NCBI GenBank assembly: GCA_028279595.1
Contig: JANQNK010000020.1
Coordinates: 341,711-405,710, forward strand
DNA length: 64,000 nt
Source: Thermoplasmatota archaeon
GTDB lineage: Archaea; Thermoplasmatota; JAKEGO01
Direction of reading: 5' to 3'
Below the pieces are notes generated by a model. It was given only the letters and a program-made list of their open reading frames with translations, ran no database searches and was not told the DNA's origin. Below, one piece after another: positions 3,147-60,629 of this stretch. The position numbers and the translations under genes were made by a program. Every line of letters begins with the position of its first letter. The first letter of the stretch is position 1.

Positions 3147-3917
3147 CTAGTCCGGCCTTAGTGTGCCAGCGAAAACCTGCCAGGCGAGCGCCGATTTCGC
3201 TACAAGGCTCAGGATGACATACATCCTCTCACCGTAGAGATAGTCCTTCCACTTGCCAACCCTGCGGTACTGGAGCATCATGTTGAGGGCGAAGCAGTTG
3301 AAGAATATCGCTATCGAAACGTAGATCCCGTACACGAAATCAGGAGGGCCTCCGTCCCCTCCTCCTGCACCGAGCAGATGGATCGCAATGACGATCCAGG
3401 GGATGATCCCGGCGATCGACCCGATGATGAAAGGCGTCCAGTTGACCTTCTTCCTTTTGTGGTTCATCTGCTCCATGAGAAGGCCGAAGTAGATCATCGT
3501 CGCGTTCACGAAGAAGAGGAGGAGCAGTGTGCCGACGTCGTAGATCCCGGTCAGCATGGCGATCGCGACTATCATGATGGAAGCGCTGACGGAGTACTCG
3601 TACCAGCGGTACGGGTTCATCCTCTTCTTGAGGTTAGCAACATACTTGTCGTATAGTACCGTTGCGATCAGGAAGTGAGCGATCGCCGATATGAAAAGGA
3701 ATAGTGCGATCAGGTAGCCCAGGCGGACCTCGGCGATCGTCACGGATTCGTGGACGAGCCTTTCCGTCGTCTCGTCCAACTTCAGGAAACCCCTGGTAAT
3801 CGGCAGTGTGAAATCGTTGCTCAGCACCACCATCAGCATCCCCTGGATGGTGTGCAGGAAGCCCATTATCAGGTTGAACCTCTTCAATTTCTGGTATTTC
3901 ACCTCGTCGCCTTTCAT
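3147..3917 (-). CDS. heR: heliorhodopsin
   Basis: 7 TM segments. HeR signatures FN-x-x-MG-x-x-H-x-x-Q, SAIAH, NPYRWYEYS (counterion Glu), and LSLVAKSALAWQVF with the retinal-binding Lys. Confidence 0.96.
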   Translation of the reverse strand: MKGDEVKYQKLKRFNLIMGFLHTIQGMLMVVLSNDFTLPITRGFLKLDETTERLVHESVTIAEVRLGYLIALFLFISAIAHFLIATVLYDKYVANLKKRMNPYRWYEYSVSASIMIVAIAMLTGIYDVGTLLLLFFVNATMIYFGLLMEQMNHKRKKVNWTPFIIGSIAGIIPWIVIAIHLLGAGGGDGGPPDFVYGIYVSIAIFFNCFALNMMLQYRRVGKWKDYLYGERMYVILSLVAKSALAWQVFAGTLRPD

Positions 3918-34363: not shown

Positions 34364-37300
34364 ATGAGGGTGTCCAAGATGAAGGGGACTTTGGCGATAT
34401 TGTTTATCGTCGTCTGTTTCGCGATGGTTCTCCCGCAAGCGGCGGGAGACACCATCGTTGTCGATGATGACGGTGGTGCGTGGGCGGATTATTCCAACAT
34501 ACAGGAGGCTGTAAACGCATCAAGTGAAGGGGATGTGATCCGGATATTCAATGGTACATATTCAAGTCACATTGAGATAGAGATAAACGTCAGCCTAATC
34601 GGGAACGGTACCAACGAGACCAGGATCGTACGAAATTGGACCAATCATGTGATATTCAACGTCAATCACCACAATGTAACGATATCCGATATGATGTTGA
34701 CAGATGTAACGGGTGATCACTCCACAGGCATATACCTGTACGGTGAACCTCCCGACGAAATCGTCAATGATCTCACGGTAGAGCGTGTCCTCTTCGAAAA
34801 CCTCACTATCGGAATAACAATTTCAGGATCGTCAAACAACCGGATCGAGAACTGTACATTCATCGATGAAGAGATCGCTGTCAACATTGACTGGTCCACC
34901 AACAACTATTATAGGAACAATACAATGATAAACTGTGGTCTGGAATTTGCTGGATACGGAGTGAAGGACCAGAAGTTCGAGTACATGGACCATGACATCG
35001 ATACCTCTAATACCGCGAACGGACGCCCTGTGGTCTATATTAAGGACCAGGTTGGAGGCTCGATCCCGACCGATCCCGGTCAAGTGATCGTCTTCAACTC
35101 TACCGATATCAAGATCGAGAACCTGAACATCACCGATGCAACCGGTGGGATCTATGTCGGTTATTCGGATCGCATCAGTATTTCGAACAACACATTGATA
35201 GACAACCGACTAGCAGGTATCTTCGTGATCACCCTCAATGATAGCCTGATACACAACAATACGATAATCGGGTCCATCGGTGTTGGGAACCGGTACGGAA
35301 CAGGATTGAAGTTGACCACATATTGTAACAACAACACAGTCTCGGGAAATACCATATCCAATTCCAATGACCAAGGACTAGCACTCACTGGCCTTGGGAC
35401 GAACAACCGTATCCTTTCGAATCACGTGTATATGAATGGTGGCGCGGGGATCGGAATTTCATATTCCCACAATAATATGATTTTCGATAACATCTGTGAT
35501 TCGAACCTGATCGGGGTCGGGATGAGTGATTCAAGCTACAATAACGCTACAAACAATACTTGTACCCATAATGAAGAGAGCGGGATCTCTGTTTTCCGAG
35601 ACGCACACTGGAATGTTGTTTTCGACAACGTAGTCATGAACAATGATCGATATGGGATCGTGATCGATGGGCTTGAGCACCTCCCCTCTGGCAACAATTC
35701 GGTGATCCATAATCAGATCTTGAAGAATCAGAATTATGGTCTCGCTGTTTTCGAAAAACCGACCAAGGAGGTATCCTTCAATTCCACGATCTATGATAAC
35801 ATATTCTGGAAGAACGGAAAACCCACTTCCCAGGGTTATGATGACGGTGTGAACAGCGCATGGGACAACGGAACCACTGGCAATTATTGGCACGATTACA
35901 AGGGTCGGGACGCAGACCACGATGGTATCGGAGATTCTGCTTACGATATCGACGGAAATGCCAACGTTCAGGACCGATATCCCCTCATGTATCCTTGGAA
36001 AGGATCGTTAATACCCTTCACATGGATCGTCGACGATAACTGGGGTTCATGGTGGGATTTCGACAGCATCCAGGATGCGGTCGATGCGTCGAGCGATGGA
36101 GATACGATCCGTGTGTATTCAGGATATTACGATGAGGCTATCGTACTCGATAACCAACTCTCTATCATTGGTAATGGATCCAATTCTACAACCATCCATG
36201 GCGATGTCAATGACGGTAACCAAACCGGCGACAACTACAACACGATAACGATTGAGGCCGACTACTGCATCCTTTCCGATCTGTTCATTTCGTATTCAGG
36301 GAGCGAGGAATATTCGGCGGGCATCGGGGTATTTGCCGATGAGATTCAACTTACTAATATCGAGTTACGTCACAATCGGTTTGGTATCTACATCAATGGA
36401 TCCAACAATGTGTCCATATCGAATTTCGATATCCAGGACAATACAGCAGCAATCCGGATTTACGATTCCTCTAATGTTACTATAGATTCGTTCCAGATAT
36501 CGATCAACCAATCCTACAACCGGTCGGCGCAAGAACAGACCATCATCATTGAAAGGAGTACGAACCTGTCAGTTATGAGTACAACCGGCCATTATCTACG
36601 CTTCGTTCGCTGCGAGGACGTATCCGTCGAAGAGTCGACTATTGAACATATGTGGCTTCAGACATCATATTGGGTAACGATCAGCCATTGTGTTCTCGTC
36701 AACGATGATGGTATCATCATGCAGGATGGAGGGATGATCGATATCGACCGTGTAACGGTACGCAACAGTATAGATGACGGAATAAGTGTTGGCGATGGAG
36801 CACGAAAGATCCGGATAACTAACTCCACCATCTCAAACTGTACAAACACCGGCATTCTGCTATCCATTGATACAGAAGATGTATCGATTATCGATTGTAC
36901 AATCTCCAAATGTGGTGATGATGGCATCAACCTCAGAATGGACGTTGTCACAATATCGAACGTCACGATATCCGACTGCAATAGGTCGATCATCAGGATC
37001 GACGGAGATGATTGTGAAATTTCGAACGGATCATTCAGCAATTGTAGTGGTACTATTCAGGTGCTCCTCGACGGTAATGGGAATATGATCAAAGACTCAG
37101 AGTTCTTTGTTGATGACTCCTATGGGATTTATCTTACCAACATCTGTGATGATACCGAGATATATCACAACAACTTCCATTCACTGTCGAACAGCACAAC
37201 CTTCGTATACCAGGAGAATGGGACATACAACCTATGGGACAATGGTTCTGCAGGTAACTACTGGTCCGACTACGACGGTAGCGATGATGATGGCGATGGG

Positions 37301-40300
37301 ATCGGGGACACGCCCTATTACATGGGGGGAACAGGGAACGGTACAGATCGGTATCCCTTGATGGATCCATGGAACGGTTCGATAGACAGATCGGGGAATG
37401 GTTCTGGGAATCAGACGCAAAATCCCGCACTAATCATCGTTGATGACGATGGTGGTAGATGGGCAGATTATACACGAGTGCCTGATGCCATAGAGAACGC
37501 AAATGAGAATGACAGGATTTTGATATACGATGGTTATTACTCGATCGATTCCCTAGAGATTAATAGAACACTAGAATTGATCGGTAATGGGTCCGCTGAT
37601 ACCATGCTATCGGGTCAGATGACATTTACCGATAATTCGATACGAGTCTCGAACCTGACAATTTCAGCAACCGGAGGACATGGCGATTACGGACTCGTCA
37701 TTCATTCAGATTCGAATATCGTTGAACATATCAGGATTCAGAAGTTCGGAAGGGGTATATATCTACTCAACGAAGCACAGGACAATGAAATCCGGGATAC
37801 CTATCTATTTGACAATAACAGGGGTGTTGTCATTTCCAGGTCCTATGGAAATCGATTGGTGAATAACACCATCGATGAATCGGTGATCGGCATCGAACTG
37901 GAGAGATCGGAACGAACGGTTATCCGTAATAACAATTTCGTCTACGGGAGTGGTATATACATTCATGGTGATAGACTTTCACACTGGAATACGCACTGGA
38001 TCGATGACTCGAACGTAGTCCAAGGTCATCGGATCCATTACATCTCAAACGCAACCAATCTAGAGATAAACGGGACCTACGGTCAGGTAATATTGGTAAA
38101 TTCCAGCCAAGTGTCAATTAAAAAATGTAAGATCAATGGGTCAAGCATCGGTATCCAACTTGGATTCTCTACCAATAACACGATCATGAAGAACGAGATT
38201 ACCTGGCAATATTACTATGACATATTCCTTTACAGATCGGATCGGAATATCATTCAAGATAACCTAATGAAGAAAAACTATCACAATGGGATCCACATCA
38301 AGGATTCTTCTGATAATCACATCAATGATAACGCGTTCATAACGTTTTACGATTTTGGATTGTGGCTCGATAATTGTACAAGCACGACAATTAATAACAA
38401 TACATTCCGACCATACGTCGATTTCGATCTAGCCATTCAATTAGAGGTCACAAACAGCTCGGTCATCACGCATAATAATTTCAAGGCCGGTTCGGGGACA
38501 GTCATAGACATCGCACCATCCTGCTATCAAAACGTCCTACATCACAACAATTTCCCGTATGGAGAATCTGTCCATGATTATGAAGGAAACTCCACATGGG
38601 ATGACGGATCTGAAGGTAATTATTGGTCTTCATACGGTGGAAAGGATTCAAATAACGACGGAATCGGCGATACTCCGTTCTATATCGATAATTCGACTGG
38701 GTCCGTGGATTACTTCCCCTTAATGGAACCGAACGGATCAAGGACCAACGTCAGCACACCAAGGACCTGGACCGTCGACGATGACAACGGATCTTGGGCT
38801 GATTTCAGATCAATTACAAATGCTGTTGCTGCTGCGAGTAGTGGCGATACCCTTCGGATATATTCTGGGATCTACAGAGAGCATTTCGTTTTAGATAGAA
38901 GTCTGAAATTAATCGGAAATGGATCGAGTTCAAGGATAATCGGATGGAAGAATGGAACGACAGTCATGATTGACGCTGATTACTGTACGATAAGTAATCT
39001 TAACTTTTCGAAGGACGAAGTGTTCTATCAAGCAACGACATTCGATACGTATGCAGACCTCCGGAGAGGTCCAGTCGGCGTGGTAAATCTGAATGTAAAT
39101 AATTGTTCAATGTCAAGTAGGAACCTCGCCGTCTTTAAATACGTAAACGAATCTCGTTTCGAGAACAACTACCTTTACGGATATACCTTCGGAATCGAAA
39201 TACAATTCTCAAACAGTTGGTTAATCCAGGATAACATATTCGTTAATGGATCAAACGGTCACGGGCCATTATATATCGAAGAATCAGAGGACATCAACAT
39301 ATATTCGAATCAGATGGATAATGTCAATACATCTGTAATCACGTTAGATAACTGCCGATCCTCATTCATTTCCTTTAACACAATTTCAAATTGTACTCGT
39401 GATGGAATTCATATTACATATGGATCAGATACGATATTGATCAGTAATAATTCGATTACTGGATCAGGAAGATATGGCATCTGGATACGATATTCATCAA
39501 ATGCCACTGTGATGAATAACATCGTCAAGAATGGTACCGGGATTGGAGTTCTCGTTACCGGAGCTAGTAATGAAAACTGGGCCCATGATAATACAATTTA
39601 CCACAATTACATATCTTCGAACAGCGGTCCAGGTATCGTATTGCATTCCCTCGGATCTAGTGCAGACTATCTATTCCATAACCAAATCTATAGGAACCTA
39701 ATCATCGATAACAATGTATCAGGGGTCCAAGCGAAATGCAACGTTGAAGACAACTACTGGGATAATGGTAGTCTAGGTAATTATTGGTCCGATTACAACG
39801 GAACCGACATCGATGGTGACGGAATCGGAGAGACACCGTATTACATCAATGGCGATGTAAATGCAATTGATAGATATCCACTCACTGAAACCTTCGCCTC
39901 CTCAAATGGGATAGATATTGAGTTGTCAAATATTTCTTTCGATGGATATCTCGTGGACGGAGAGACCATTACAGTCACTATCTCTTTAGGTACCCACTCC
40001 GGTATCCCCCACGAATCGAACATCACAATCCGTTTGAAGGTCCTTCTAGATGGCGACGAGGTCCAGAACTTCACACAGGACCTCACAATAGACTCTGGTT
40101 ATAGCAACCTGACCTTCGATCATAACATCACCCTCAACGGTACTGGCGATTTCACCTTCGAAGCCGAGATCGTTCATGATAATGAGACGATAGTGTCCGA
40201 CAGCACGTCTGTCACCACCAGTGAGGCGGTCTACTCGTTTTCCCTAGTTCTGGACCGCCTCACACCCGGTGCCGATCCGGGGGACGACATCGAGTACGAG

Positions 40301-41221
40301 CTCGAGGTGAAGAACAGCGGGAACGTGCCTCAGACGATCCGTCTATCTTGTTCGAAGGGTTGGATCAATTTCTCCAAAACGACCCTGTTCATCCACCCAG
40401 ACGGATCAGGATACTCGACCATCACAGCGTCGATCCCGTCGGACGCAACAGGGTCAGTGAACTTCACCATCGTTGCCAAGAGCTATGACAAGGACAACGA
40501 TATCGTGAACTCCGGCAATGCTCCAGTGACCATCACCCTGGATGACGAGAGCGAGGACGACGACCCAGAGCGCATCGTATGGGTCTTCGTGGGAGCTGGA
40601 ATAATGATTGGTGCCGGCATCCTCATCGGCACCGAGATAGGATTATACGCTCTCATGACACTCTTCATGCCGTTGTACTCCCGGGTGAAGGGCGAGAAGG
40701 TCCTGGACAACTTCGTACGCGGTCAGATCTACGGTTACGTTGTCGCAAATCCAGGTGCCAGCTTCAATCAGATCAGGAAGGCTCTCAGTCTCCACAATGG
40801 ACAGTTCGCCTACCACGTGCAGGTGCTCGGTCGCGAGAAGTACATCCGGATCCAGCGTGACGGCATCTACACTCGGTTCTATCCTGCACCGATGAATGGA
40901 GGAGCGATCCCTGTCACAGGGATGCGCGCCGATATCTTCCACGTCATCCGCGAGAACCCTGGCATATCCCAGAAGGAGATCGCGAAGACCCTCGGGATCA
41001 GCAATCAGCTCGTCAGCTACCATGTTATGAGGCTCCGGGAGAGGAAGCTCCTCAAGGTCAAGCAGAAGGGACGTCGGTCGCTCCTATTCGAGAGGAAGCG
41101 CCACGCGAAGGTCGTCGATGATGACATGGATTTCATGGAGGACGATATCGTCGGTGAGGAGGGGCCCGTGATGGGCTCCATCCCCGTGGACCCGCTCGAT
41201 ACTGACGAGGAGAACACATAG
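34364..41221 (+). CDS. giant surface protein: signal peptide, four NosD/CASH parallel beta-helix modules, Ig-like domains, TM helix and cytoplasmic tandem winged-helix domains
   Basis: Four modules start V-D-D-[DN]-x-G-x-W-x-D-[YF] and end WD-x-G-x-x-GNYW-x-x-Y-x-G-x-D-x-[DN]-x-DGIG...D-x-[YF]PL. C-terminus PLYSR...LDNFVRGQIYGYV-x-x-NPG...YH and IRENPGISQKEIA-x-x-LG-x-S-x-Q-x-VSYH. Confidence 0.9.
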   Translation: MRVSKMKGTLAILFIVVCFAMVLPQAAGDTIVVDDDGGAWADYSNIQEAVNASSEGDVIRIFNGTYSSHIEIEINVSLIGNGTNETRIVRNWTNHVIFNVNHHNVTISDMMLTDVTGDHSTGIYLYGEPPDEIVNDLTVERVLFENLTIGITISGSSNNRIENCTFIDEEIAVNIDWSTNNYYRNNTMINCGLEFAGYGVKDQKFEYMDHDIDTSNTANGRPVVYIKDQVGGSIPTDPGQVIVFNSTDIKIENLNITDATGGIYVGYSDRISISNNTLIDNRLAGIFVITLNDSLIHNNTIIGSIGVGNRYGTGLKLTTYCNNNTVSGNTISNSNDQGLALTGLGTNNRILSNHVYMNGGAGIGISYSHNNMIFDNICDSNLIGVGMSDSSYNNATNNTCTHNEESGISVFRDAHWNVVFDNVVMNNDRYGIVIDGLEHLPSGNNSVIHNQILKNQNYGLAVFEKPTKEVSFNSTIYDNIFWKNGKPTSQGYDDGVNSAWDNGTTGNYWHDYKGRDADHDGIGDSAYDIDGNANVQDRYPLMYPWKGSLIPFTWIVDDNWGSWWDFDSIQDAVDASSDGDTIRVYSGYYDEAIVLDNQLSIIGNGSNSTTIHGDVNDGNQTGDNYNTITIEADYCILSDLFISYSGSEEYSAGIGVFADEIQLTNIELRHNRFGIYINGSNNVSISNFDIQDNTAAIRIYDSSNVTIDSFQISINQSYNRSAQEQTIIIERSTNLSVMSTTGHYLRFVRCEDVSVEESTIEHMWLQTSYWVTISHCVLVNDDGIIMQDGGMIDIDRVTVRNSIDDGISVGDGARKIRITNSTISNCTNTGILLSIDTEDVSIIDCTISKCGDDGINLRMDVVTISNVTISDCNRSIIRIDGDDCEISNGSFSNCSGTIQVLLDGNGNMIKDSEFFVDDSYGIYLTNICDDTEIYHNNFHSLSNSTTFVYQENGTYNLWDNGSAGNYWSDYDGSDDDGDGIGDTPYYMGGTGNGTDRYPLMDPWNGSIDRSGNGSGNQTQNPALIIVDDDGGRWADYTRVPDAIENANENDRILIYDGYYSIDSLEINRTLELIGNGSADTMLSGQMTFTDNSIRVSNLTISATGGHGDYGLVIHSDSNIVEHIRIQKFGRGIYLLNEAQDNEIRDTYLFDNNRGVVISRSYGNRLVNNTIDESVIGIELERSERTVIRNNNFVYGSGIYIHGDRLSHWNTHWIDDSNVVQGHRIHYISNATNLEINGTYGQVILVNSSQVSIKKCKINGSSIGIQLGFSTNNTIMKNEITWQYYYDIFLYRSDRNIIQDNLMKKNYHNGIHIKDSSDNHINDNAFITFYDFGLWLDNCTSTTINNNTFRPYVDFDLAIQLEVTNSSVITHNNFKAGSGTVIDIAPSCYQNVLHHNNFPYGESVHDYEGNSTWDDGSEGNYWSSYGGKDSNNDGIGDTPFYIDNSTGSVDYFPLMEPNGSRTNVSTPRTWTVDDDNGSWADFRSITNAVAAASSGDTLRIYSGIYREHFVLDRSLKLIGNGSSSRIIGWKNGTTVMIDADYCTISNLNFSKDEVFYQATTFDTYADLRRGPVGVVNLNVNNCSMSSRNLAVFKYVNESRFENNYLYGYTFGIEIQFSNSWLIQDNIFVNGSNGHGPLYIEESEDINIYSNQMDNVNTSVITLDNCRSSFISFNTISNCTRDGIHITYGSDTILISNNSITGSGRYGIWIRYSSNATVMNNIVKNGTGIGVLVTGASNENWAHDNTIYHNYISSNSGPGIVLHSLGSSADYLFHNQIYRNLIIDNNVSGVQAKCNVEDNYWDNGSLGNYWSDYNGTDIDGDGIGETPYYINGDVNAIDRYPLTETFASSNGIDIELSNISFDGYLVDGETITVTISLGTHSGIPHESNITIRLKVLLDGDEVQNFTQDLTIDSGYSNLTFDHNITLNGTGDFTFEAEIVHDNETIVSDSTSVTTSEAVYSFSLVLDRLTPGADPGDDIEYELEVKNSGNVPQTIRLSCSKGWINFSKTTLFIHPDGSGYSTITASIPSDATGSVNFTIVAKSYDKDNDIVNSGNAPVTITLDDESEDDDPERIVWVFVGAGIMIGAGILIGTEIGLYALMTLFMPLYSRVKGEKVLDNFVRGQIYGYVVANPGASFNQIRKALSLHNGQFAYHVQVLGREKYIRIQRDGIYTRFYPAPMNGGAIPVTGMRADIFHVIRENPGISQKEIAKTLGISNQLVSYHVMRLRERKLLKVKQKGRRSLLFERKRHAKVVDDDMDFMEDDIVGEEGPVMGSIPVDPLDTDEENT

Positions 41222-43340: not shown

Positions 43341-44261
43341 TCAGCCGAAGAATCGCTTCCTCTTCGCCTTGAAACGAAATCGGGTCTCCCATCCACACTT
43401 CGTGCACCCGAACTTGTCCCCGTCCTTGACCACGTCCTCACCGCAGCTGGGACAGATAATAACATCGGCGAACTGATCTATCCACGCTTCCCTGACGTCG
43501 TCGATGTCCTCGGACTCTATGTGGCCTATCAGCTCCTTCGCCCGCGGACCCTTGGCCAGGCGATGCAGGGCTGGAACTGAGATCACCTTCTTCCCGGCCA
43601 ATTCGCCCGCTATCATCGGGGCGAGGACCATCCCTGTCGCCAATCCGCCGACGTGGGCCATGTGGCCGATGCCGTCGGACCTGAGGGTAATGACGAGCCA
43701 TGTCTCGAAGGCTCCGTAGACGAGCACGCCCATCCAGACCGGTGCCTCGACGAGGATTATCAACGGCATGAGTATCATGTCGTTCGGGTAGGTGGCCAGG
43801 TATGCCCCCATCAGCCCGAAGATCGCACCGGATGCTCCGACGCGGAAAACGTGTGTGTCGCCGAAGATGCTGAAGGATGTGGCGGTGTCGAGGACCCCAG
43901 CTATGATCCCTGATGCGAAGTAGATGATCGCTATCTTCTTGGTCCCTATCCTCTGCTCGAACGGGAGTCCGAAGAAGACCAGGAATATCGTGTTGCCAAG
44001 TATGTGAAGCAGACTGCCATGTAGGAACATGTGCGTAACGAATGTGTAGAACTTCGGCCCAACCGCCGTCTCGGGCCTCAGTGCCAGGTCGTTGTACAGG
44101 TACCACAGCCTTCCCGGCATCATGACGACCATGACGACGAAGTACAGGAAGATGAGGAAGTTCACTATCGCGATGAAGAATATGAACGGAACCTTCTGTC
44201 TCAGGGTGTAGACTAGACTGAGAACGATGAGAGCGAGGACCGGCAGGGATACGGGGTCCAT
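43341..44261 (-). CDS. rhomboid intramembrane serine protease with C-terminal zinc ribbon
   Basis: THMFLHGS-x-x-HI-x-GN, VGASGAIFG (Ser), HMAHVGG (His); CPSC...CTKC tail; start ATG 44261. Confidence 0.93.
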   Translation of the reverse strand: MDPVSLPVLALIVLSLVYTLRQKVPFIFFIAIVNFLIFLYFVVMVVMMPGRLWYLYNDLALRPETAVGPKFYTFVTHMFLHGSLLHILGNTIFLVFFGLPFEQRIGTKKIAIIYFASGIIAGVLDTATSFSIFGDTHVFRVGASGAIFGLMGAYLATYPNDMILMPLIILVEAPVWMGVLVYGAFETWLVITLRSDGIGHMAHVGGLATGMVLAPMIAGELAGKKVISVPALHRLAKGPRAKELIGHIESEDIDDVREAWIDQFADVIICPSCGEDVVKDGDKFGCTKCGWETRFRFKAKRKRFFG

Positions 44262-44271
44262 CCGACCCCCT

Positions 44272-44616
44272 TCACCTCTTGACGTTGAGAAGCAGTTCTT
44301 CGTCCTGGACGTACTCGAGGCCGTTCTTGGCGGCGAACTCGGCCTTCTGGAGCTCACGGCCGATGTAAGCGGCGTGCTCGAGTCGGGAGACGAGTTCCTC
44401 TCGCATGATCGTGTGGCACATGGCCAGAGCTGCCTGTCCCACGACCATGGTGTCGAGCTTGCCTGTCTCGACGGTGTCGTTGGAGTGGGTCACGTTCTGG
44501 TAGTGCTCGGCGCAGATCTCGCCGTCCTTGACGTAGATCACGAAGAACCCCTTCTCGTCGAACACGAGTTTCGGGTTCCGCGTCGCTTCGATCTCCTTTA
44601 TGCTCGCCTCGTTCAT
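44272..44616 (-). CDS. DUF4346 family protein
   Basis: D-x-KGFF-x-I, I-x-AEHY, SRLEHAAYIGRELQKAE...YVQD. Confidence 0.88.
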   Translation of the reverse strand: MNEASIKEIEATRNPKLVFDEKGFFVIYVKDGEICAEHYQNVTHSNDTVETGKLDTMVVGQAALAMCHTIMREELVSRLEHAAYIGRELQKAEFAAKNGLEYVQDEELLLNVKR

Positions 44617-44617
44617 C

Positions 44618-45511
44618 TCAGGCCTCCTTCTCCACTTCTCTTGCAGCCCTCACCAGGACTTCTAGTTTTCCCCGCGCTGACGGTTCCGGCAGACCGCCGA
44701 GACCGCAGTCGGGATCGAGCACGATCCGCTCCGGCGGAAGGATGTCCAGCGCCTTCCTGATATGCGCCACGACGGCGTCGAGCGGTTCGACCTCCGGGGT
44801 GTCGGAGGCGACCGAGCCGAGCCCTATCCTCTGGGCCGGTTCGTGCTCCCTCAGAAGAGGCATGATACGTTCCTGTTTATAAAACTCGTGGTCGAGGATG
44901 TCAACGGGGTAATCGATGAGATCGGCGAATATCGGCGAGACGTCGCCGCATACGTGCAATGCCCTCTCACCCTCGAATCCGTCGAACATGATCTCGATGA
45001 GCTCCTTCGCGTACTCAGGATACTCCACCGACAGGAACGGTTCGTCTATCTGAACCGTGTCGACGACATCGCCAAGGGCGATTACCTCCTTCCTCAGCGC
45101 TTCCGCGAACGCGAATGCCATTTCCTTCCGATCGTCATAATGCTTGTCAACAACTGACATCGCCATGGTATGGGGCCCGGTGATGACGCCCTTCGCCCTG
45201 GCGTTCGAACCTTTTGCGATCGTGTCGGAAAGAACGACGTCCTCGACCGTGATCGGTCCACGGTACTCGATGTCGCCGATGACCTCCGGTCTACCCTTGA
45301 TCCTGAGTCCACCGAGCTTCGAAGCGAAGATGTTGATCATGCCCCCCCGGGTCTGGCCATCCGAGACGATGTCGATCCCAGCGTCGAGCTGTGCCTGGAC
45401 CGTGTATTCAATTCCAGTGATGAACGGGTCCGAACCGTCATGCATCGAGTCGAGCGACAGCGGTGACGGTCTGTAGGGAAAACTACCGACGACGGTCGTG
45501 GTCAGCCTCAA
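44618..45511 (-). CDS. core (folate-binding-domain-less) methionine synthase, MesA-like methylcobamide:homocysteine methyltransferase
   Basis: TTVVGSFP, Q-x-x-AGID-x-x-SDGQ-x-R, ITGP-x-T, QIDEP, H-V-C (Zn), PDCGL (Zn); single barrel of about 297 aa; TTG start overlapping the mtrH stop. Confidence 0.88.
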   Translation of the reverse strand: MRLTTTVVGSFPYRPSPLSLDSMHDGSDPFITGIEYTVQAQLDAGIDIVSDGQTRGGMINIFASKLGGLRIKGRPEVIGDIEYRGPITVEDVVLSDTIAKGSNARAKGVITGPHTMAMSVVDKHYDDRKEMAFAFAEALRKEVIALGDVVDTVQIDEPFLSVEYPEYAKELIEIMFDGFEGERALHVCGDVSPIFADLIDYPVDILDHEFYKQERIMPLLREHEPAQRIGLGSVASDTPEVEPLDAVVAHIRKALDILPPERIVLDPDCGLGGLPEPSARGKLEVLVRAAREVEKEA

Positions 45512-46425
45512 GGCATGACCCTCCGGGGATGCCCCTCGGGGGGGCCGACTCCGAAGTAGTCCTCGGCGCCCTCTGAGACCATCTTGTCGACCATCCCGGC
45601 GAGCGGGAACATGTACCTCGCGTTGTCGATGGGTCCGTAAACGAGGAAGTCGGCGCCGAAGGCCATGGGAAGGACGTTCGCGCCCATGTCGCAGATCCTG
45701 AACGTGATACCATGTTCCTTCCTGTATTCGCGCATCCAGAGCCACGACTCGACCGTGTTGTGGATGGCGCATCCGACGGGAAGTCCGAACAGGTTCTTCA
45801 GCACGGGGATCGCCCTGACGGTCTCTCCGGCCATGTGGTCGAAGGGCGTGGCGGCGGTGTCGAGCAATGGTGCCATCCCTAGCTCCCTCGCCAGGTCCAG
45901 TAGTCCCGTCTCGTGGTATCGACCACCATCGCGGATCATCGTCACCCTGCCGTCCGAGCTCATGTCGCTCGGATCGAAGCCCAGGAGTATCGCCGAAGCG
46001 GGCGTGTGTTCCCTGAACGCCTTGATCGTGTCCTCCGTCAGTCCCATGTTGAGGGAATTGGCAATGGTCCTGTCCAGTAGCCCTGAGTCGTCGATGTACT
46101 CCAGGATATCGGGCCAGAGCTCGACCTCGGGGACGTCGAGCGAGATCGGACCGTCGGTCGCTCCGACGACCGAATCGATTCGATCGGCAAAATCAGGTCC
46201 GTCAAGGAATATGTCCACGACGGACGGGTTGCCCGTGAGAGCAGCGAACCTCTCCTGTTCCTCGACCAGTTCCTTGACCTTGGAGAACGCATCGGCATCG
46301 ATGCTCTTGAACTGCTTCCTGTAGAACACGGTGCCTATGAGGACCGTTGCGGTCTCGCCAGGCTGTCCGCCGAAGCGGACGCCCGCGATGTCCATTATCT
46401 CCTGTTCCTTCGAGAATGACAGCAT
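45508..46425 (-). CDS. mtrH: MtrH-family methyl-pterin:corrinoid methyltransferase
   Basis: F-x-KEQ-x-x-x-DIAGV-x-FGGQPGE, TVL-x-GT-x-FY, NSLN, PLLDTA, GLPVGC-x-x-HN, GADFL-x-YGPI. Confidence 0.92.
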   Translation of the reverse strand: MLSFSKEQEIMDIAGVRFGGQPGETATVLIGTVFYRKQFKSIDADAFSKVKELVEEQERFAALTGNPSVVDIFLDGPDFADRIDSVVGATDGPISLDVPEVELWPDILEYIDDSGLLDRTIANSLNMGLTEDTIKAFREHTPASAILLGFDPSDMSSDGRVTMIRDGGRYHETGLLDLARELGMAPLLDTAATPFDHMAGETVRAIPVLKNLFGLPVGCAIHNTVESWLWMREYRKEHGITFRICDMGANVLPMAFGADFLVYGPIDNARYMFPLAGMVDKMVSEGAEDYFGVGPPEGHPRRVMP

Positions 46426-47018
46426 CAGGATGCCTCCAGAGGACCTGTCTCGCCGTACGGGTCCATTATAAGGGTCGCGTGGACGGCGATGGAATCATCG
46501 ACCGTGATCCCCTTGGCGCCCGCCTTCTCTATCTTGATGGCGATGTACGGCTCATCCATGGGTGGCGGACAGTCGGTGATGTTCTCTTCGATAGCATCGT
46601 TCAGGTCGTCCATGGAGGTGTTGCCGATCATATCGACGATCTGGATCTGTTCCGCATACCGCGCGACAGCATCGGAGTCGATGTTCTCGATGTACGGCAG
46701 CGCTCCACTGGACCCGAGCACCCTGTTAGCTGCGTCGATGCCGTTCTCGTTGAGCGCCTTGAGTGCGTCCCCGGACCTGTGGCCCTTGACGTCAACGCCC
46801 CAGATTATCAGCCGTCTGATGTTGGGGTTTGATATGACGTTGGCGACCACCTTCTCGACCCCTATGTTCTCCGTCCGGATCTCCCCCCATATGGCAACCC
46901 TCTCCTCGGGCAGGTCTATCCTGCAGGATAGGGTAGCGACGGCAACGCAGGAATCGGGGTTGCCGATGCGGAATTCACCGCTCCAGGGGTACATCGTTTT
47001 GCCATTCATCTCCCGCAT
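46425..47018 (-). CDS. mtrA: soluble MtrA-family corrinoid protein (no C-terminal membrane anchor)
   Basis: GNPDSCVAVATL, TENIGVEKVVANVISNPNIR, VKGH (cobalt-ligating His), GALPYIEN; hydrophilic C-terminus. Confidence 0.92.
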   Translation of the reverse strand: MREMNGKTMYPWSGEFRIGNPDSCVAVATLSCRIDLPEERVAIWGEIRTENIGVEKVVANVISNPNIRRLIIWGVDVKGHRSGDALKALNENGIDAANRVLGSSGALPYIENIDSDAVARYAEQIQIVDMIGNTSMDDLNDAIEENITDCPPPMDEPYIAIKIEKAGAKGITVDDSIAVHATLIMDPYGETGPLEAS

Positions 47019-58865: not shown

Positions 58866-60521
58866 TCACCTCACTCCGGTGATATCTCCGTCGGGTCCGA
58901 TGTCGATATCCTCCGCGATGGGGTGTGCGGGCAATCCCGGCATCAGGTTGACGTTCTCCGTGAATGCGACGAGGAAACCTGCGCCGGCGTTCACTTTAAG
59001 TCCCTGGATCGTGCAGGGCATGTCCTTCGGAGGGACTCCCCTGACCTTCGGATCGTTCGAGATCGAAAGTGGCGTCTTCGCCATGCAGATCGGGAGGTCG
59101 GCGAACCCTGCGGACTCGAACATCGCGATCCTCTCTCTTGCCTTCTTCGAGAACACCACATGGTCTATCCCGTACATGGCACCGGCTATCGTGCGGATCT
59201 TCTCCTCGACACTCGCGTCGGTGTCGTACAGGTGACGGAAGTCCGAACCACGGTCGACCGCAGCGACCACAGCTTCTGCAAGGTCCGTCGCCCCTTCTCC
59301 TCCGTTCTCGTACGCTGTTATCATGGCGAAAGGAATGTCGAGCTCGGCAGAAAGGCTCCTGACGAGGTCGATCTCGTCATCTGACTCGTTTCCGAAGATG
59401 TTCAGGGCCACGACTGCTGGTACTCCGTGCGCCGTGACGTTCTCGACATGCTTCTTGAGGTTCGGCAGCCCTGCGGCGACGCGGTCCGAGCTCTGATCGT
59501 CCAGCTCTGACCTCTTCGCTCCGCCCTGCCTTCTCAGGGCCTTGACGCTGGCCACGATGACACCGGCGGAAACGTCGAAACCGCCCGAACGGGCGACAAT
59601 GTTGAAGAACTTCTCAGCACCGAGTTCCGAGCCGAATCCGGCCTCAACGACGGCGTATCCGGCCAGACGTCTGGCCATCTGGATCGCGATGATGGATGCA
59701 GTACCATGGGCTATGTTGGCGAAGGGTCCTCCATGGACGATGGCCGGAGTGTTCTCTGTGGTCTGGACCAGGTTCGGCCTGATGGCGTCCTTGAGGAGAA
59801 GCGTCATCGCTCCCTGGACGTTGAGGTCGCGGACCCTGACAGGTTCGCCGGAGTAATTGTAGGCCACGACGGCCGATCCCAGACGCTCCTCGAGGTCCTT
59901 CAGGTCCGTCGCCAGGCCCAGTATGGCCATGACCTCCGACGCCGCGGATATAGTGAAGCTGTCGGTCCTCGCGACGCCCGATTCCGCATTGACGCCGGTC
60001 ACCACGCTCCTGAGGCCCCTGTCGTTGACGTCCAGACAGCGTCGCCAGACGACGTTGTTCTGGTCTATTAGCAGGGAGTTGCCCCTGAAGATGTGGTTGT
60101 CGAGCACGGCAGCGACCAGATTGTTCGCCGCGGCCACCGCATACAGGTCGCCGGTGAAATGCAGGTTGATGTCAAGGGTCGGGACGACCCGCGATCTTCC
60201 TCCGCCAGTACCGGCTCCCTTGACGCCGAACATCGGACCCAGGGATGGTTCCCTCAGGACGACGATGGAGGAACGGCCAAGCCTGTTCAGGGCCTCGCTG
60301 AGCCCGATCGAGACCGTCGTCTTGCCTTCACCGGACCTCGTCGGGGTCATGGCCGTTATCAGCACCAGCTTCCCTGGCTCGACGCCCTCGAGCCTCTGAA
60401 GGAGCGGGAGCTTGAGCTTTGCCATGTGCCTGCCGTAGTTCTCGATCTCGTCCGGGGTCACGCCGATCGCTCCCGCTACCTCTTCGATCGGAAGCATCTC
60501 GTCGGCCGAGGCGATCTCCAT
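58866..60521 (-). CDS. fhs: formate--tetrahydrofolate ligase
   Basis: TAMTPT-x-x-GEGKTT, LREPSLGP-x-FG-x-KG, INLHFTGD, HGGPFANIAHG, EAGFG-x-x-LGAEKF, ICMAKT, MPGLP; start approximate. Confidence 0.97.
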   Translation of the reverse strand: MEIASADEMLPIEEVAGAIGVTPDEIENYGRHMAKLKLPLLQRLEGVEPGKLVLITAMTPTRSGEGKTTVSIGLSEALNRLGRSSIVVLREPSLGPMFGVKGAGTGGGRSRVVPTLDINLHFTGDLYAVAAANNLVAAVLDNHIFRGNSLLIDQNNVVWRRCLDVNDRGLRSVVTGVNAESGVARTDSFTISAASEVMAILGLATDLKDLEERLGSAVVAYNYSGEPVRVRDLNVQGAMTLLLKDAIRPNLVQTTENTPAIVHGGPFANIAHGTASIIAIQMARRLAGYAVVEAGFGSELGAEKFFNIVARSGGFDVSAGVIVASVKALRRQGGAKRSELDDQSSDRVAAGLPNLKKHVENVTAHGVPAVVALNIFGNESDDEIDLVRSLSAELDIPFAMITAYENGGEGATDLAEAVVAAVDRGSDFRHLYDTDASVEEKIRTIAGAMYGIDHVVFSKKARERIAMFESAGFADLPICMAKTPLSISNDPKVRGVPPKDMPCTIQGLKVNAGAGFLVAFTENVNLMPGLPAHPIAEDIDIGPDGDITGVR

Positions 60522-60629
60522 CAATGACAGCCTATCACCGGCAATACGACGGTCTGGATGGATTATTAAGGTTTCCACACCGTTGCCAGTGTGGTAATTC
60601 TTGAAAATCGGACAATATTTATGGAATGA

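Follow-up and report, generated by a model that had tools for sequence, protein, structure and literature searches.

The window analysed here, a 64,000-nucleotide stretch of a contig from a Thermoplasmatota archaeon, carries on its minus strand, between positions 44272 and 47018, four overlapping or abutting genes in the order MtrA-MtrH-Mes-DUF4346. The first encodes a soluble MtrA-type corrinoid carrier protein (46425..47018; 197 aa as the longest ORF; PF04208, 168 bits, E 2e-49), and the second an MtrH-type methyl-pterin:corrinoid methyltransferase (45508..46425; 305 aa; PF02007, 232 bits, E 1.3e-68). They are followed by a single-barrel zinc-dependent core MetE, which we call Mes (44618..45511; 297 aa with a TTG start; PF01717, 124 bits, E 7e-36), and by a small protein of the DUF4346 (PterinBD-DUF4346) family (44272..44616; 114 aa; PF14251, 90 bits, E 2e-25). 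MtrA and MtrH overlap by 1 nt in the motif TGATG, MtrH and Mes by 2 nt in TTGA, and a spacer of 1 nt separates Mes from DUF4346; we infer from the sequence alone that the four genes are translationally coupled. Pfam places all four, as well as both flanking genes, in families other than MtxX. Outside the operon, the window encodes a formate-tetrahydrofolate ligase (fhs, 58866..60578, minus strand; PF01268, 727 bits), which provides pathway context. The source genome is 86% complete, and all genome-wide absences reported below are provisional; it contains one copy each of MtrA, MtrH, Mes, and DUF4346. A look-up of sequencing runs listed no RNA run, and the only full match was a DNA run from a coral metagenome, which is probably the source.

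The true start of MtrA is probably the ATG at 46994, immediately before a conserved YPW; this start is inferred from the sequence alone, as is a TATA-like TTTAT some 26 nt before it. The protein has no transmembrane segment (the maximum 19-residue Kyte-Doolittle mean is 0.91). It aligns with the solved MtrA chains 5laa and 8q3v at E ~1e-37, its G79-H80 matching their GH, and H80, which we take to be the cobalt-ligand histidine (His84 of Harms and Thauer), is invariant among 25 orthologues. Its score with TIGR01111 is 156 bits, under the cut-off of 249. The pterin-binding methyltransferase barrel PF02007 spans residues 6-289 of MtrH, which scores 252 bits with TIGR01114, under the equivalog cut-off of 271, and 140 bits with the model of the THF-using MtgA. 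The operon copies are the sole MtrA and the sole MtrH found in the 86%-complete genome. The first-pass annotation of the window had described a four-gene operon with overlapping or abutting codons on one strand, an anchor-less MtrA that kept its histidine ligand, and an fhs gene in the same window. These three descriptions held.

The third gene is a core methionine synthase by its domain content and its residues. PF01717 spans residues 4-291 of the 297 of Mes, and the N-terminal barrel family PF08267 reaches only 18 bits, under its cut-off, so that the folate-binding barrel is missing. The position of the TTG start is that of the start of a 61%-identical homologue (P0003, MRL.TTVVGS). The zinc ligands H186, C188, E209, and C269 are invariant in alignments of 13 and of 25 orthologues; VVGS and IDEP are further invariant motifs. 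Four motifs (VVGS, IDEP, HxC, and DPDCG) are common to Mes, MesA, MesB, and the catalytic half of split MetE; in MetE structures, these motifs bind homocysteine. The identities of the genes and these key residues are shown by the data; the substrates are not, and will be discussed as inferences. With NF002119, the model of the methanogen MesA, Mes scores 249.6 bits for a cut-off of 258, and methanogen MesA proteins score 429-475. Mes is 37-39% identical to MesA of Methanocaldococcus and Methanothermococcus and 40% identical to the catalytic half of the Thermofilum split MetE, and thus misses the threshold of ~40% identity that would make it closer to characterised MesA than split MetE is. Its identity to MesB and the Dehalococcoides core-MetE is about 35-37%. 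In our trees, it forms its own clade beside the methanogen MesA and the CoFeSP-linked MesB, outside both, and the MesB clade (support 100/99) excludes it. Three assignments to known types could be rejected. Mes is not MesA proper, being under the NF002119 cut-off, outside the MesA clade, and in a non-methanogen. It is not MesB, which is ruled out by the tree and by the failure to find CoFeSP (CdhD) in the 86%-complete genome. Nor is it MesC, which is about 22% identical to MesA (Price), whereas Mes is 35-40% identical to MesA and MesB.

Conservation of the cluster reaches across deep lineages. Among 80 named species-level loci, MtrH lies beside Mes on the same strand in 62, mainly from Thermoplasmatota but also from Altiarchaeota and Undinarchaeota, and 58 of these 62 include MtrA. 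The order MtrA-MtrH-Mes-DUF4346 is retained at just 40-50% protein identity, and the flanking genes vary between loci. In 23 loci the operon begins with MetF (PF02219), immediately ahead of MtrA and mostly overlapping it by 4 bp; the same arrangement is found in Thermofilum, where MetF adjoins a classical split MetE. The linkage is specific to this clade: MtrH is adjacent in 64 of 72 rows of this Mes clade and in none of six methanogen MesA loci, and in the five MesB loci examined, neither MtrA nor MtrH nor DUF4346 is a neighbour. MtrA also co-occurs with Mes where the two genes are apart. When 41 genomes were searched (G000 and 40 relatives), MtrA was present in exactly the seven with a close Mes. 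Five further genomes have an unlinked Mes, and four of them encode MtrA elsewhere, adjoining MetF in three cases, two of which also have MtrH. Many related Thermoplasmatota lack any recognisable methionine synthase. One relative (G002) has the cluster plus a MetH-type homocysteine domain, which means that the cluster is not always the sole methionine synthase candidate; another (G016) bears MesB and has CdhD.

No alternative methionine synthase or donor of methyl groups turned up elsewhere in the 86%-complete genome. Searches of it found no MetH homocysteine domain (PF02574), no second Meth_synt_2 gene (Mes being the only one), no CoFeSP (CdhD), and no other methyltransferase-type corrinoid protein. 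The only strong match to the B12-binding family PF02310 elsewhere in the genome is a stand-alone protein of 158 aa without an adjoining methyltransferase. Searches for McrA, and for MtrE as the representative of the membrane subunits of Mtr, gave no hit here or in the other six relatives with the cluster. The genome does encode MetF and Fhs. MTHFR is found in 7/7 cluster-bearing genomes vs 6/34 of the others, and the H4MPT marker Mch in 0/7, including this 86%-complete one. The one-carbon carrier is thus likely folate, given the MetF adjacency (23 loci), the distribution of MTHFR and Mch, and the presence of fhs in the window. Two findings on the supply and upkeep of the cobamide count against a cobamide-dependent role. 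None of the seven cluster-bearing genomes, one of which is 97% complete, yielded CobS, and the cobamide would therefore need to be imported. A search of the 86%-complete genome for a reductive activator of the RACo/RamA type (with RACo_C_ter) likewise gave no hit, which leaves the route for repairing oxidised Co(II) unexplained.

The DUF4346 gene immediately follows Mes in 59 of the 80 loci, and remains next to Mes where MtrA and MtrH are located elsewhere. Its AF2 model (pLDDT 88) has three strands and two helices. A Foldseek search against the PDB gave no match at E <= 0.001, the top VIA-align hits among 48,161 chains, to ribosomal proteins and PH-like domains, had a Z of 5.8, which is within background, and the ESM Atlas returned only other DUF4346 proteins, so that the fold gives no functional lead. 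Complex prediction on the four chains with DUF4346 as partner produced no score above the control margin, and so speaks neither for binding nor against it. The literature searched makes no mention of the family. Domains of the MtrA-like and DUF4346 types are also found with thymidylate synthase, which indicates that the pair is not methionine-specific. Fusions of the two (P0241 and P0243) were considered as a link to methionine and rejected, as they adjoin ThyA and dCTP deaminase, not Mes. We regard DUF4346 as an accessory subunit that travels with Mes, a role that had been suggested at first pass and that remains an inference. As an adaptor or a cap, it might possibly sit where the corrinoid protein meets the acceptor enzyme.

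We propose that the operon most likely encodes a soluble, modular, cobamide-dependent methionine synthase, in which a methyl group of folate type would travel via MtrH and MtrA to Mes, although biochemical and genetic evidence is lacking for every member of the clade. First, MetF would reduce methylene-H4F to methyl-H4F, 5-methyl-tetrahydrofolate being the most likely pterin here. Second, MtrH would move the methyl from the methyl-pterin to the Co(I) cobamide on the anchor-less MtrA. Third, the zinc-dependent Mes would pass it from methyl-Co(III)-MtrA to homocysteine, yielding methionine and Co(I). In this scheme, MtrH, MtrA, and Mes would act as the folate, cobalamin, and homocysteine modules of MetH, two of the three being drawn from unrelated families, and the methyl relay would involve no Na+ pumping. 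The direction in which the methyl moves is inferred, as are the substrates, the contacts between the proteins, and the enzyme activity itself. In particular, the pterin specificity of MtrH and the thiol specificity of Mes are extrapolated, because both score just under the NCBI equivalog cut-offs. Previous studies are in favour of the last step. When methylcobalamin supplies the methyl for homocysteine, MesA and the Dehalococcoides core-MetE show a high Km (for the latter, roughly 240 uM free methylcobalamin is reported), so that a corrinoid protein is expected to be the real donor (PMC7857596, PMC7005905), and MtrA has been predicted to be the donor of MesA (Price 2021, PMC7857596; bioRxiv preprint 10.1101/2024.04.15.589591). 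Price & Arkin 2024 reported the two genes near each other in "a few genomes". Price 2021 and 2024 are the only papers in the literature searched that connect MtrA/MtrH with the methylation of homocysteine.

The first-pass annotation had already proposed this MetH-like relay, and every prediction that could be checked held, activity remaining an inference. It had proposed to check for the absence of metH, full metE, mtrCDE, and mcr: no MetH homocysteine domain, second Meth_synt_2, MtrE, or McrA was found in the 86%-complete genome, extending genome-wide its remark that the window lacks mtrB-G and mcr (MtrE alone of mtrB-G was searched singly). It had proposed to examine the conservation of the neighbourhood, which is the case in 62/80 loci, and the phylogeny against MesA and MesB, which puts Mes in a separate clade. 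A complete membrane Mtr would have refuted the model, and none was found in the 41 related genomes. It had favoured folate from the presence of fhs, and this has now stronger support. One reservation concerns the phrase "from methanogen parts", since the evolutionary direction that it implies is conjectural.

Four alternative explanations should be considered. The one that survives best, even if unlikely, is that the carrier is H4MPT or another pterin, as in methanogens. In favour of it, MtrH scores higher with the H4MPT-type model (252 bits) than with the THF-type MtgA model (140 bits), and archaeal pterins are diverse. Against it, Mch is found in 0/7 and MTHFR in 7/7 of the cluster-bearing genomes, MetF was added to the operon in 23 loci, and Fhs is encoded in the window. 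A second alternative, for which we see very little room, is that the system works in reverse as a catabolic demethylase: Mes would strip the methyl of a thioether (methionine, methylmercaptopropionate, or dimethylsulfide) onto MtrA, and MtrH would hand it to H4F for oxidation through MetF, FolD, and Fhs. The adjacency of MetF and the presence of fhs are compatible with either direction, and thioether-demethylating corrinoid systems exist in Methanosarcina. The source is a coral metagenome, a habitat where methylated sulfur compounds are expected. However, moving a methyl from methyl-pterin to thiol is a strongly exergonic step (about -30 kJ/mol in the case of Mtr), and methanogens can reverse it only with the help of the Na+ gradient, whereas the present system has no membrane part. 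Furthermore, Mes is the only methionine synthase candidate found in the genome and its closest characterised relatives are biosynthetic. Third, the relay might be real and its acceptor not be homocysteine, Mes methylating another thiol or small molecule and methionine being obtained otherwise. This reading, which we also deem highly improbable, draws on the placement of Mes, just under the equivalog cut-off for MesA and apart from the MesA and MesB clades, and on the many related Thermoplasmatota without a recognisable methionine synthase, which suggest that auxotrophy is common in the phylum; it is countered by the motifs shared with MesA, MesB, and the catalytic half of split MetE, and by the Thermofilum locus, where MetF adjoins split MetE in the same arrangement. 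Finally, the genes could be mere neighbours, with Mes using another corrinoid protein or free methylcobamide and MtrA/MtrH moving methyl groups into or out of the folate pool for other ends, the usual suggestion for orphan MtrAH, as could be argued from the view of MtrAH outside methanogens as a methyl funnel into the Wood-Ljungdahl pathway (PMC9635834) and from the naming of CoFeSP as the donor for MesB and MesC (Price 2021), but we consider this highly improbable given that neither CdhD/CoFeSP nor other methyltransferase-type corrinoid proteins were found in the 86%-complete genome, the inferred translational coupling, the clade-specific linkage in 62/80 loci, and the co-occurrence of MtrA with unlinked Mes.

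The methionine synthase reading matters because the role of MtrA/MtrH outside methanogens is "currently unclear" (Adam et al. 2022, PMC9635834), and genome papers have taken such proteins to be methanogenesis remnants or Wood-Ljungdahl methyl funnels (PMC6775978, PMC9635834). Their presence in a conserved operon beside a core methionine synthase, and often MetF, would provide an everyday biosynthetic function. The operon also gives the untested prediction that enzymes of the MesA type draw their methyl from MtrA (PMC7857596) its most direct genomic backing to date, and makes that prediction testable at the bench, because all the partners are here small soluble proteins. If true, the lineages bearing the cluster would depend on B12 for methionine, and MesA-like enzymes could no longer be described as exclusive to methanogens. 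Caution is due in using MtrA/MtrH as markers of ancestral methanogenesis; both have been inferred in the last archaeal common ancestor (PMC13473441). A bolder reading can be put together, which we consider improbable when its parts are taken jointly: that MetF-MtrA-MtrH-Mes-DUF4346 is a distinct, self-contained type of synthase and the only methionine route in many non-methanogenic archaea (Thermoplasmatota, Altiarchaeota, Undinarchaeota), that the Na+-pumping Mtr of methanogens was built upon an older, soluble, biosynthetic MtrA/MtrH relay, and that DUF4346 is a general adaptor coupling MtrA-type corrinoid domains to C1 enzymes (Mes, a ThyA-like synthase). Were it true, MtrA/MtrH in inferred ancestral archaeal genomes would not be a sign of methanogenesis.

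What is new here is the variant operon of soluble MtrA/MtrH with Mes and DUF4346; the prediction of MtrA as the MesA donor and the proximity of the genes in "a few genomes" were already known. Comparison with known systems shows both shared and distinct features. The canonical Mtr differs in that the operon MtrA has no C-terminal membrane anchor and is not part of an mtrEDCBAFGH operon. In MtxXAH of Methanosarcina and in the "group IV MtrA / subgroup III MtrH" of non-methanogens (PMC4632066), too, an MtrA without anchor and an MtrH homologue occur together apart from the membrane complex, but the Mes operon has no MtxX-like gene and its partners are Mes and DUF4346; no earlier paper in the literature searched ties these soluble groups to methionine synthesis. 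MtgA is an MtrH-family THF methyltransferase, whose NCBIfam name shows that tetrahydrofolate use is possible in the family. MesB and the Dehalococcoides core-MetE (PMC7005905) are likewise core single-barrel synthases for which a corrinoid protein is the expected donor, but that predicted for MesB is CoFeSP, and CdhD was found in the MesB-bearing G016, not in the source genome. The methylcobalamin:homocysteine methyltransferase MesA of methanogens (Schroeder and Thauer 1999; Price et al. 2021, PMC7857596) resembles Mes in being a single-barrel zinc enzyme of the MetE type without the folate-binding barrel, in having NF002119 as its best model, and in having an MtrA-type corrinoid protein as its proposed donor, that of the membrane Mtr in the case of MesA. 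In contrast, Mes falls in a separate clade, occurs in non-methanogens (no McrA/MtrE found), and is encoded with its soluble MtrA, whereas methanogen MesA genes are unlinked to mtr; its system probably uses folate rather than H4MPT, and has DUF4346 and often MetF in addition. MetH, including its naturally split forms, has the chemistry and module logic proposed for the operon, since it too combines a pterin methyltransferase, a cobamide carrier, and a zinc homocysteine module, and its folate domain is a remote homologue of MtrH (PMC4632066). The differences lie in the parts: the operon carrier has the MtrA fold instead of a Rossmann-type B12-binding domain with a cap, the module for homocysteine belongs to the MetE type, the MetH homocysteine domain not having been found in the genome, and the modules are separate proteins without a recognisable AdoMet reactivation domain. 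The operon thus follows a MetH-like logic without being a member of MetH.

The operon of MtrA, MtrH, a third core-MetE lineage, and DUF4346 is likely a corrinoid-dependent methionine synthase, although this activity is inferred. Four minus-strand ORFs take up window positions 44272-47018 and are, by Pfam assignment, an MtrA-like protein (47018..46425, 197 aa; PF04208, E 2e-49), MtrH (46425..45508, 305 aa; PF02007, E 1.3e-68), the core MetE, or Mes (45511..44618, 297 aa, TTG start; PF01717, E 7e-36), and DUF4346 (44616..44272, 114 aa; PF14251, currently named PterinBD-DUF4346, E 2e-25). Since their junctions are, in order, TGATG, TTGA, and a 1-nt spacer, we regard the genes as translationally coupled. 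The first-pass annotation, which proposed a split methionine synthase rebuilt from methanogen-type parts, described a one-strand operon with overlapping or abutting genes, an anchor-less MtrA with its histidine ligand, and a single-barrel Zn methionine synthase. The first description held in every checkable point (ORFs, Pfam, junctions). So did the second: no hydrophobic segment was found in the MtrA sequence, and in an alignment with the solved MtrA chains 5laa and 8q3v, G79-H80, which is invariant across 25 orthologues, falls on their GH. We take H80 to be the cobalt ligand, an identity that comes from the MtrA literature. The third is supported by the PF01717 match and the four conserved Zn ligands of Mes (H186, C188, E209, C269), whose VVGS and IDEP motifs are common to MesA, MesB, and the catalytic half of split MetE.

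The flanks of the operon are unrelated to it: upstream a divergently transcribed DUF401 gene, and downstream a gene for a rhomboid protease whose C-terminus carries a zinc ribbon (43341-44261, minus strand). The protease gene shares the operon's strand, starts only 10 nt past the DUF4346 stop, and might be co-transcribed with the operon in this genome; other loci do not conserve it as a neighbour. In soluble MtrA proteins, the membrane anchor is replaced by a C-terminal tail of ~30 residues (window 46425-46520, MtrA residues about 167-197; alignment A3), with a nearly invariant histidine, H180, in an ALH motif. This tail could be a docking peptide, a role that is only inferred.

Conservation of the neighbourhood, a further check, also held. 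A Mes alignment, run against a single genome for each GTDB species, gave 80 named loci, in which the four proteins were placed by tblastn and clustering of all ORFs. In 62 of them MtrH immediately precedes Mes on its strand; 58 of these 62 also have MtrA, some being truncated at contig ends. DUF4346 lies downstream of Mes in 59 of the 80. Linked loci occur in many MAGs of Thermoplasmata and Thermoplasmatota, among them Proteinoplasmatales SG8-5, the haloalkaliphilic Halarchaeoplasmataceae, and MAGs labelled Methanomassiliicoccales, as well as in Altiarchaeota, in Undinarchaeota, and in one MAG labelled Aenigmatarchaeota. Because the proteins are just 40-50% identical between loci and the flanking genes vary, the four genes form a conserved unit. 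Leaving out antisense overlap with the cluster genes, MTHFR is the next commonest neighbour: MetF immediately precedes MtrA in 23 loci, where the two genes usually overlap by 4 bp and the order is MetF-MtrA-MtrH-Mes-DUF4346. In Thermofilum, from the same data set, MetF adjoins a classical split MetE, which by analogy would follow the same scheme through another synthase. Split or interrupted clusters break between MtrH and Mes; DUF4346 remains directly beside Mes in most of them, and in the others it is no more than about 0.6 kb away. Separately, a small MJ1316-domain gene (PF04457) recurs beside core synthases without obvious reason: it closely follows DUF4346 in two linked loci (L030 5256-5492; L031 5586-5819) and closely precedes MesB in an unlinked locus (L116 4687-4977).

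The linkage follows the phylogeny. In a tree rooted with split-MetE catalytic halves, core synthases form one group (support 100/100), within which methanogen MesA (100/100) and MesB (100/99) are sisters (95/86). Dehalococcoidia proteins belong to MesB, as does the Mes from a relative that carries CdhD. The MtrAH-linked sequences, with the operon's Mes, form a separate clade (82/93) that excludes two unlinked sequences, both taken from MAGs labelled Nanohalarchaeota. MtrH is adjacent in 64 of the 72 rows of the linked clade in a larger quick tree; neither MtrA nor MtrH was found near MesA (0/6 loci) or MesB (0/5 loci examined). Among the loci examined, the linkage is thus specific to one Mes clade.

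The assembly (2.29 Mb, 21 contigs, 86% complete) has Thermoplasmata MAGs as its nearest named relatives, and the only sequencing run that contains the stretch in full comes from a coral metagenome. MtrA, MtrH, Meth_synt_2, and DUF4346 are each single copy and within the operon. MetF/MTHFR (252 bits) adjoins a PLP-dependent enzyme gene. A search of this 86%-complete genome found no McrA, MtrE, MetH homocysteine domain, CdhD (CoFeSP), Mch, RACo-type activator, or CobS. A strong B12-binding domain occurs in just one other protein, which is stand-alone (158 aa) and lacks a methyltransferase neighbour. Therefore, as far as such a genome can show, the organism is not a methanogen, its C1 pathway is folate-type rather than H4MPT-type, and the operon's Mes and MtrA are, respectively, its sole candidate methionine synthase and its sole methyltransferase-type corrinoid carrier. 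Elsewhere in the window, a 256-aa ORF (3147-3917, minus strand) encodes a full-length heliorhodopsin (PF18761, 351 bits), so the archaeon has a light-sensing or light-using membrane protein. A 2285-aa ORF (34364-41221, plus strand) lies in a low-G+C stretch (0.41-0.47 vs about 0.58-0.60 around), suggesting foreign origin or strong compositional bias.

Across 41 genomes (this one and 40 relatives), MtrA is present in exactly the seven with a close Mes, even though the two genes are on different contigs in two of them. MTHFR occurs in 7/7 cluster genomes and 6/34 others, and Mch in none of the seven. The fhs gene noted in the first pass as favouring folate was confirmed within the window, and folate is the likely pterin carrier. 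MtrE was found in none of the 41 genomes, McrA only in three of another family without the cluster, and strong CdhD matches only where the cluster is absent. In five further genomes where a linked-clade Mes is not beside MtrA, four encode MtrA elsewhere, three of these beside MetF, with MtrH next in two. A search for CobS found none in all seven cluster genomes, one of them 97% complete, which implies cobamide import: these lineages would need to import complete cobamides for a B12-dependent methionine synthase. In one Thermoplasmatota relative, MTHFR and a homocysteine S-methyltransferase domain of the MetH type lie side by side with the two halves of a split MetE (G021:C17:6662-10267; loci L013, L020), a different, apparently redundant methionine-synthesis cluster.

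The part played by DUF4346 is less clear. Its AF2 model is confident (pLDDT 88), with two helices predicted to pack against a three-stranded sheet, and structure searches returned no informative neighbour. In other proteins, DUF4346 occurs in fusions with DHPS-like pterin-binding barrels, with MtrA (Chloroflexota), or with thymidylate synthase, the last with or without MtrA. MtrA-DUF4346 fusions adjoin ThyA and dcd (dCTP deaminase; proteins P0243/P0241 in loci L121, L122, L123, with P0244 in the same set), and ThyA-MtrA-DUF4346 triple fusions occur in Chloroflexota and Woesearchaeota (atlas rows); the pair thus has a second, unexplained partnership with a folate-dependent enzyme. DUF4346 therefore generally accompanies pterin/C1 enzymes and MtrA-type domains, and within the operon gene order ties it to Mes. 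That it acts as an adaptor or cap is a reasonable guess, though less likely than not.

In the route we propose, MetF would reduce methylene-H4F to methyl-H4F, MtrH would methylate the Co(I) cobamide on soluble MtrA, and Mes would take the methyl group for homocysteine activated on its Zn. The last two steps rest on the established roles of MtrH (Hippler and Thauer 1999, cited in PMC7005905) and of core synthases. In vitro, MesA and the Dehalococcoides core-MetE accept methylcobalamin, but their Km for it is so high that the free compound cannot be their real donor (PMC7857596, PMC7005905). The alternative, that the relay runs in reverse, catabolically and without a membrane part, is unlikely because methyl transfer from pterin to thiol is exergonic by about 30 kJ/mol. 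The MetF to MtrH/MtrA to Mes route remains the best-supported reading and is likely, with activity inferred.

Parts of this system had been seen before. Price et al. 2021 (PMC7857596) predicted MtrA as the MesA donor, Price and Arkin 2024 remarked that the two genes are close together in a few genomes, Wang et al. 2015 catalogued anchor-less MtrA with MtrH in non-methanogens without a link to methionine, and Adam et al. 2022 (PMC9635834) considered the role of MtrAH outside methanogens unclear. Price et al., working with a sample of 321 archaeal proteomes, drew the line for MesA near 40% identity; linked-clade Mes are 37-39% identical to MesA, so this would explain why they were left out and MesA was reported as methanogen-only. 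The NCBI MesA model NF002119 gives 429-475 bits on methanogen MesA, whereas the linked clade scores 220-270 and the window's Mes 249.6, below the cut-off of 258. Relative to these known systems, the operon, the separate Mes clade, and the joining of MetF to the operon appear new: neither they nor DUF4346 are described in the literature searched.
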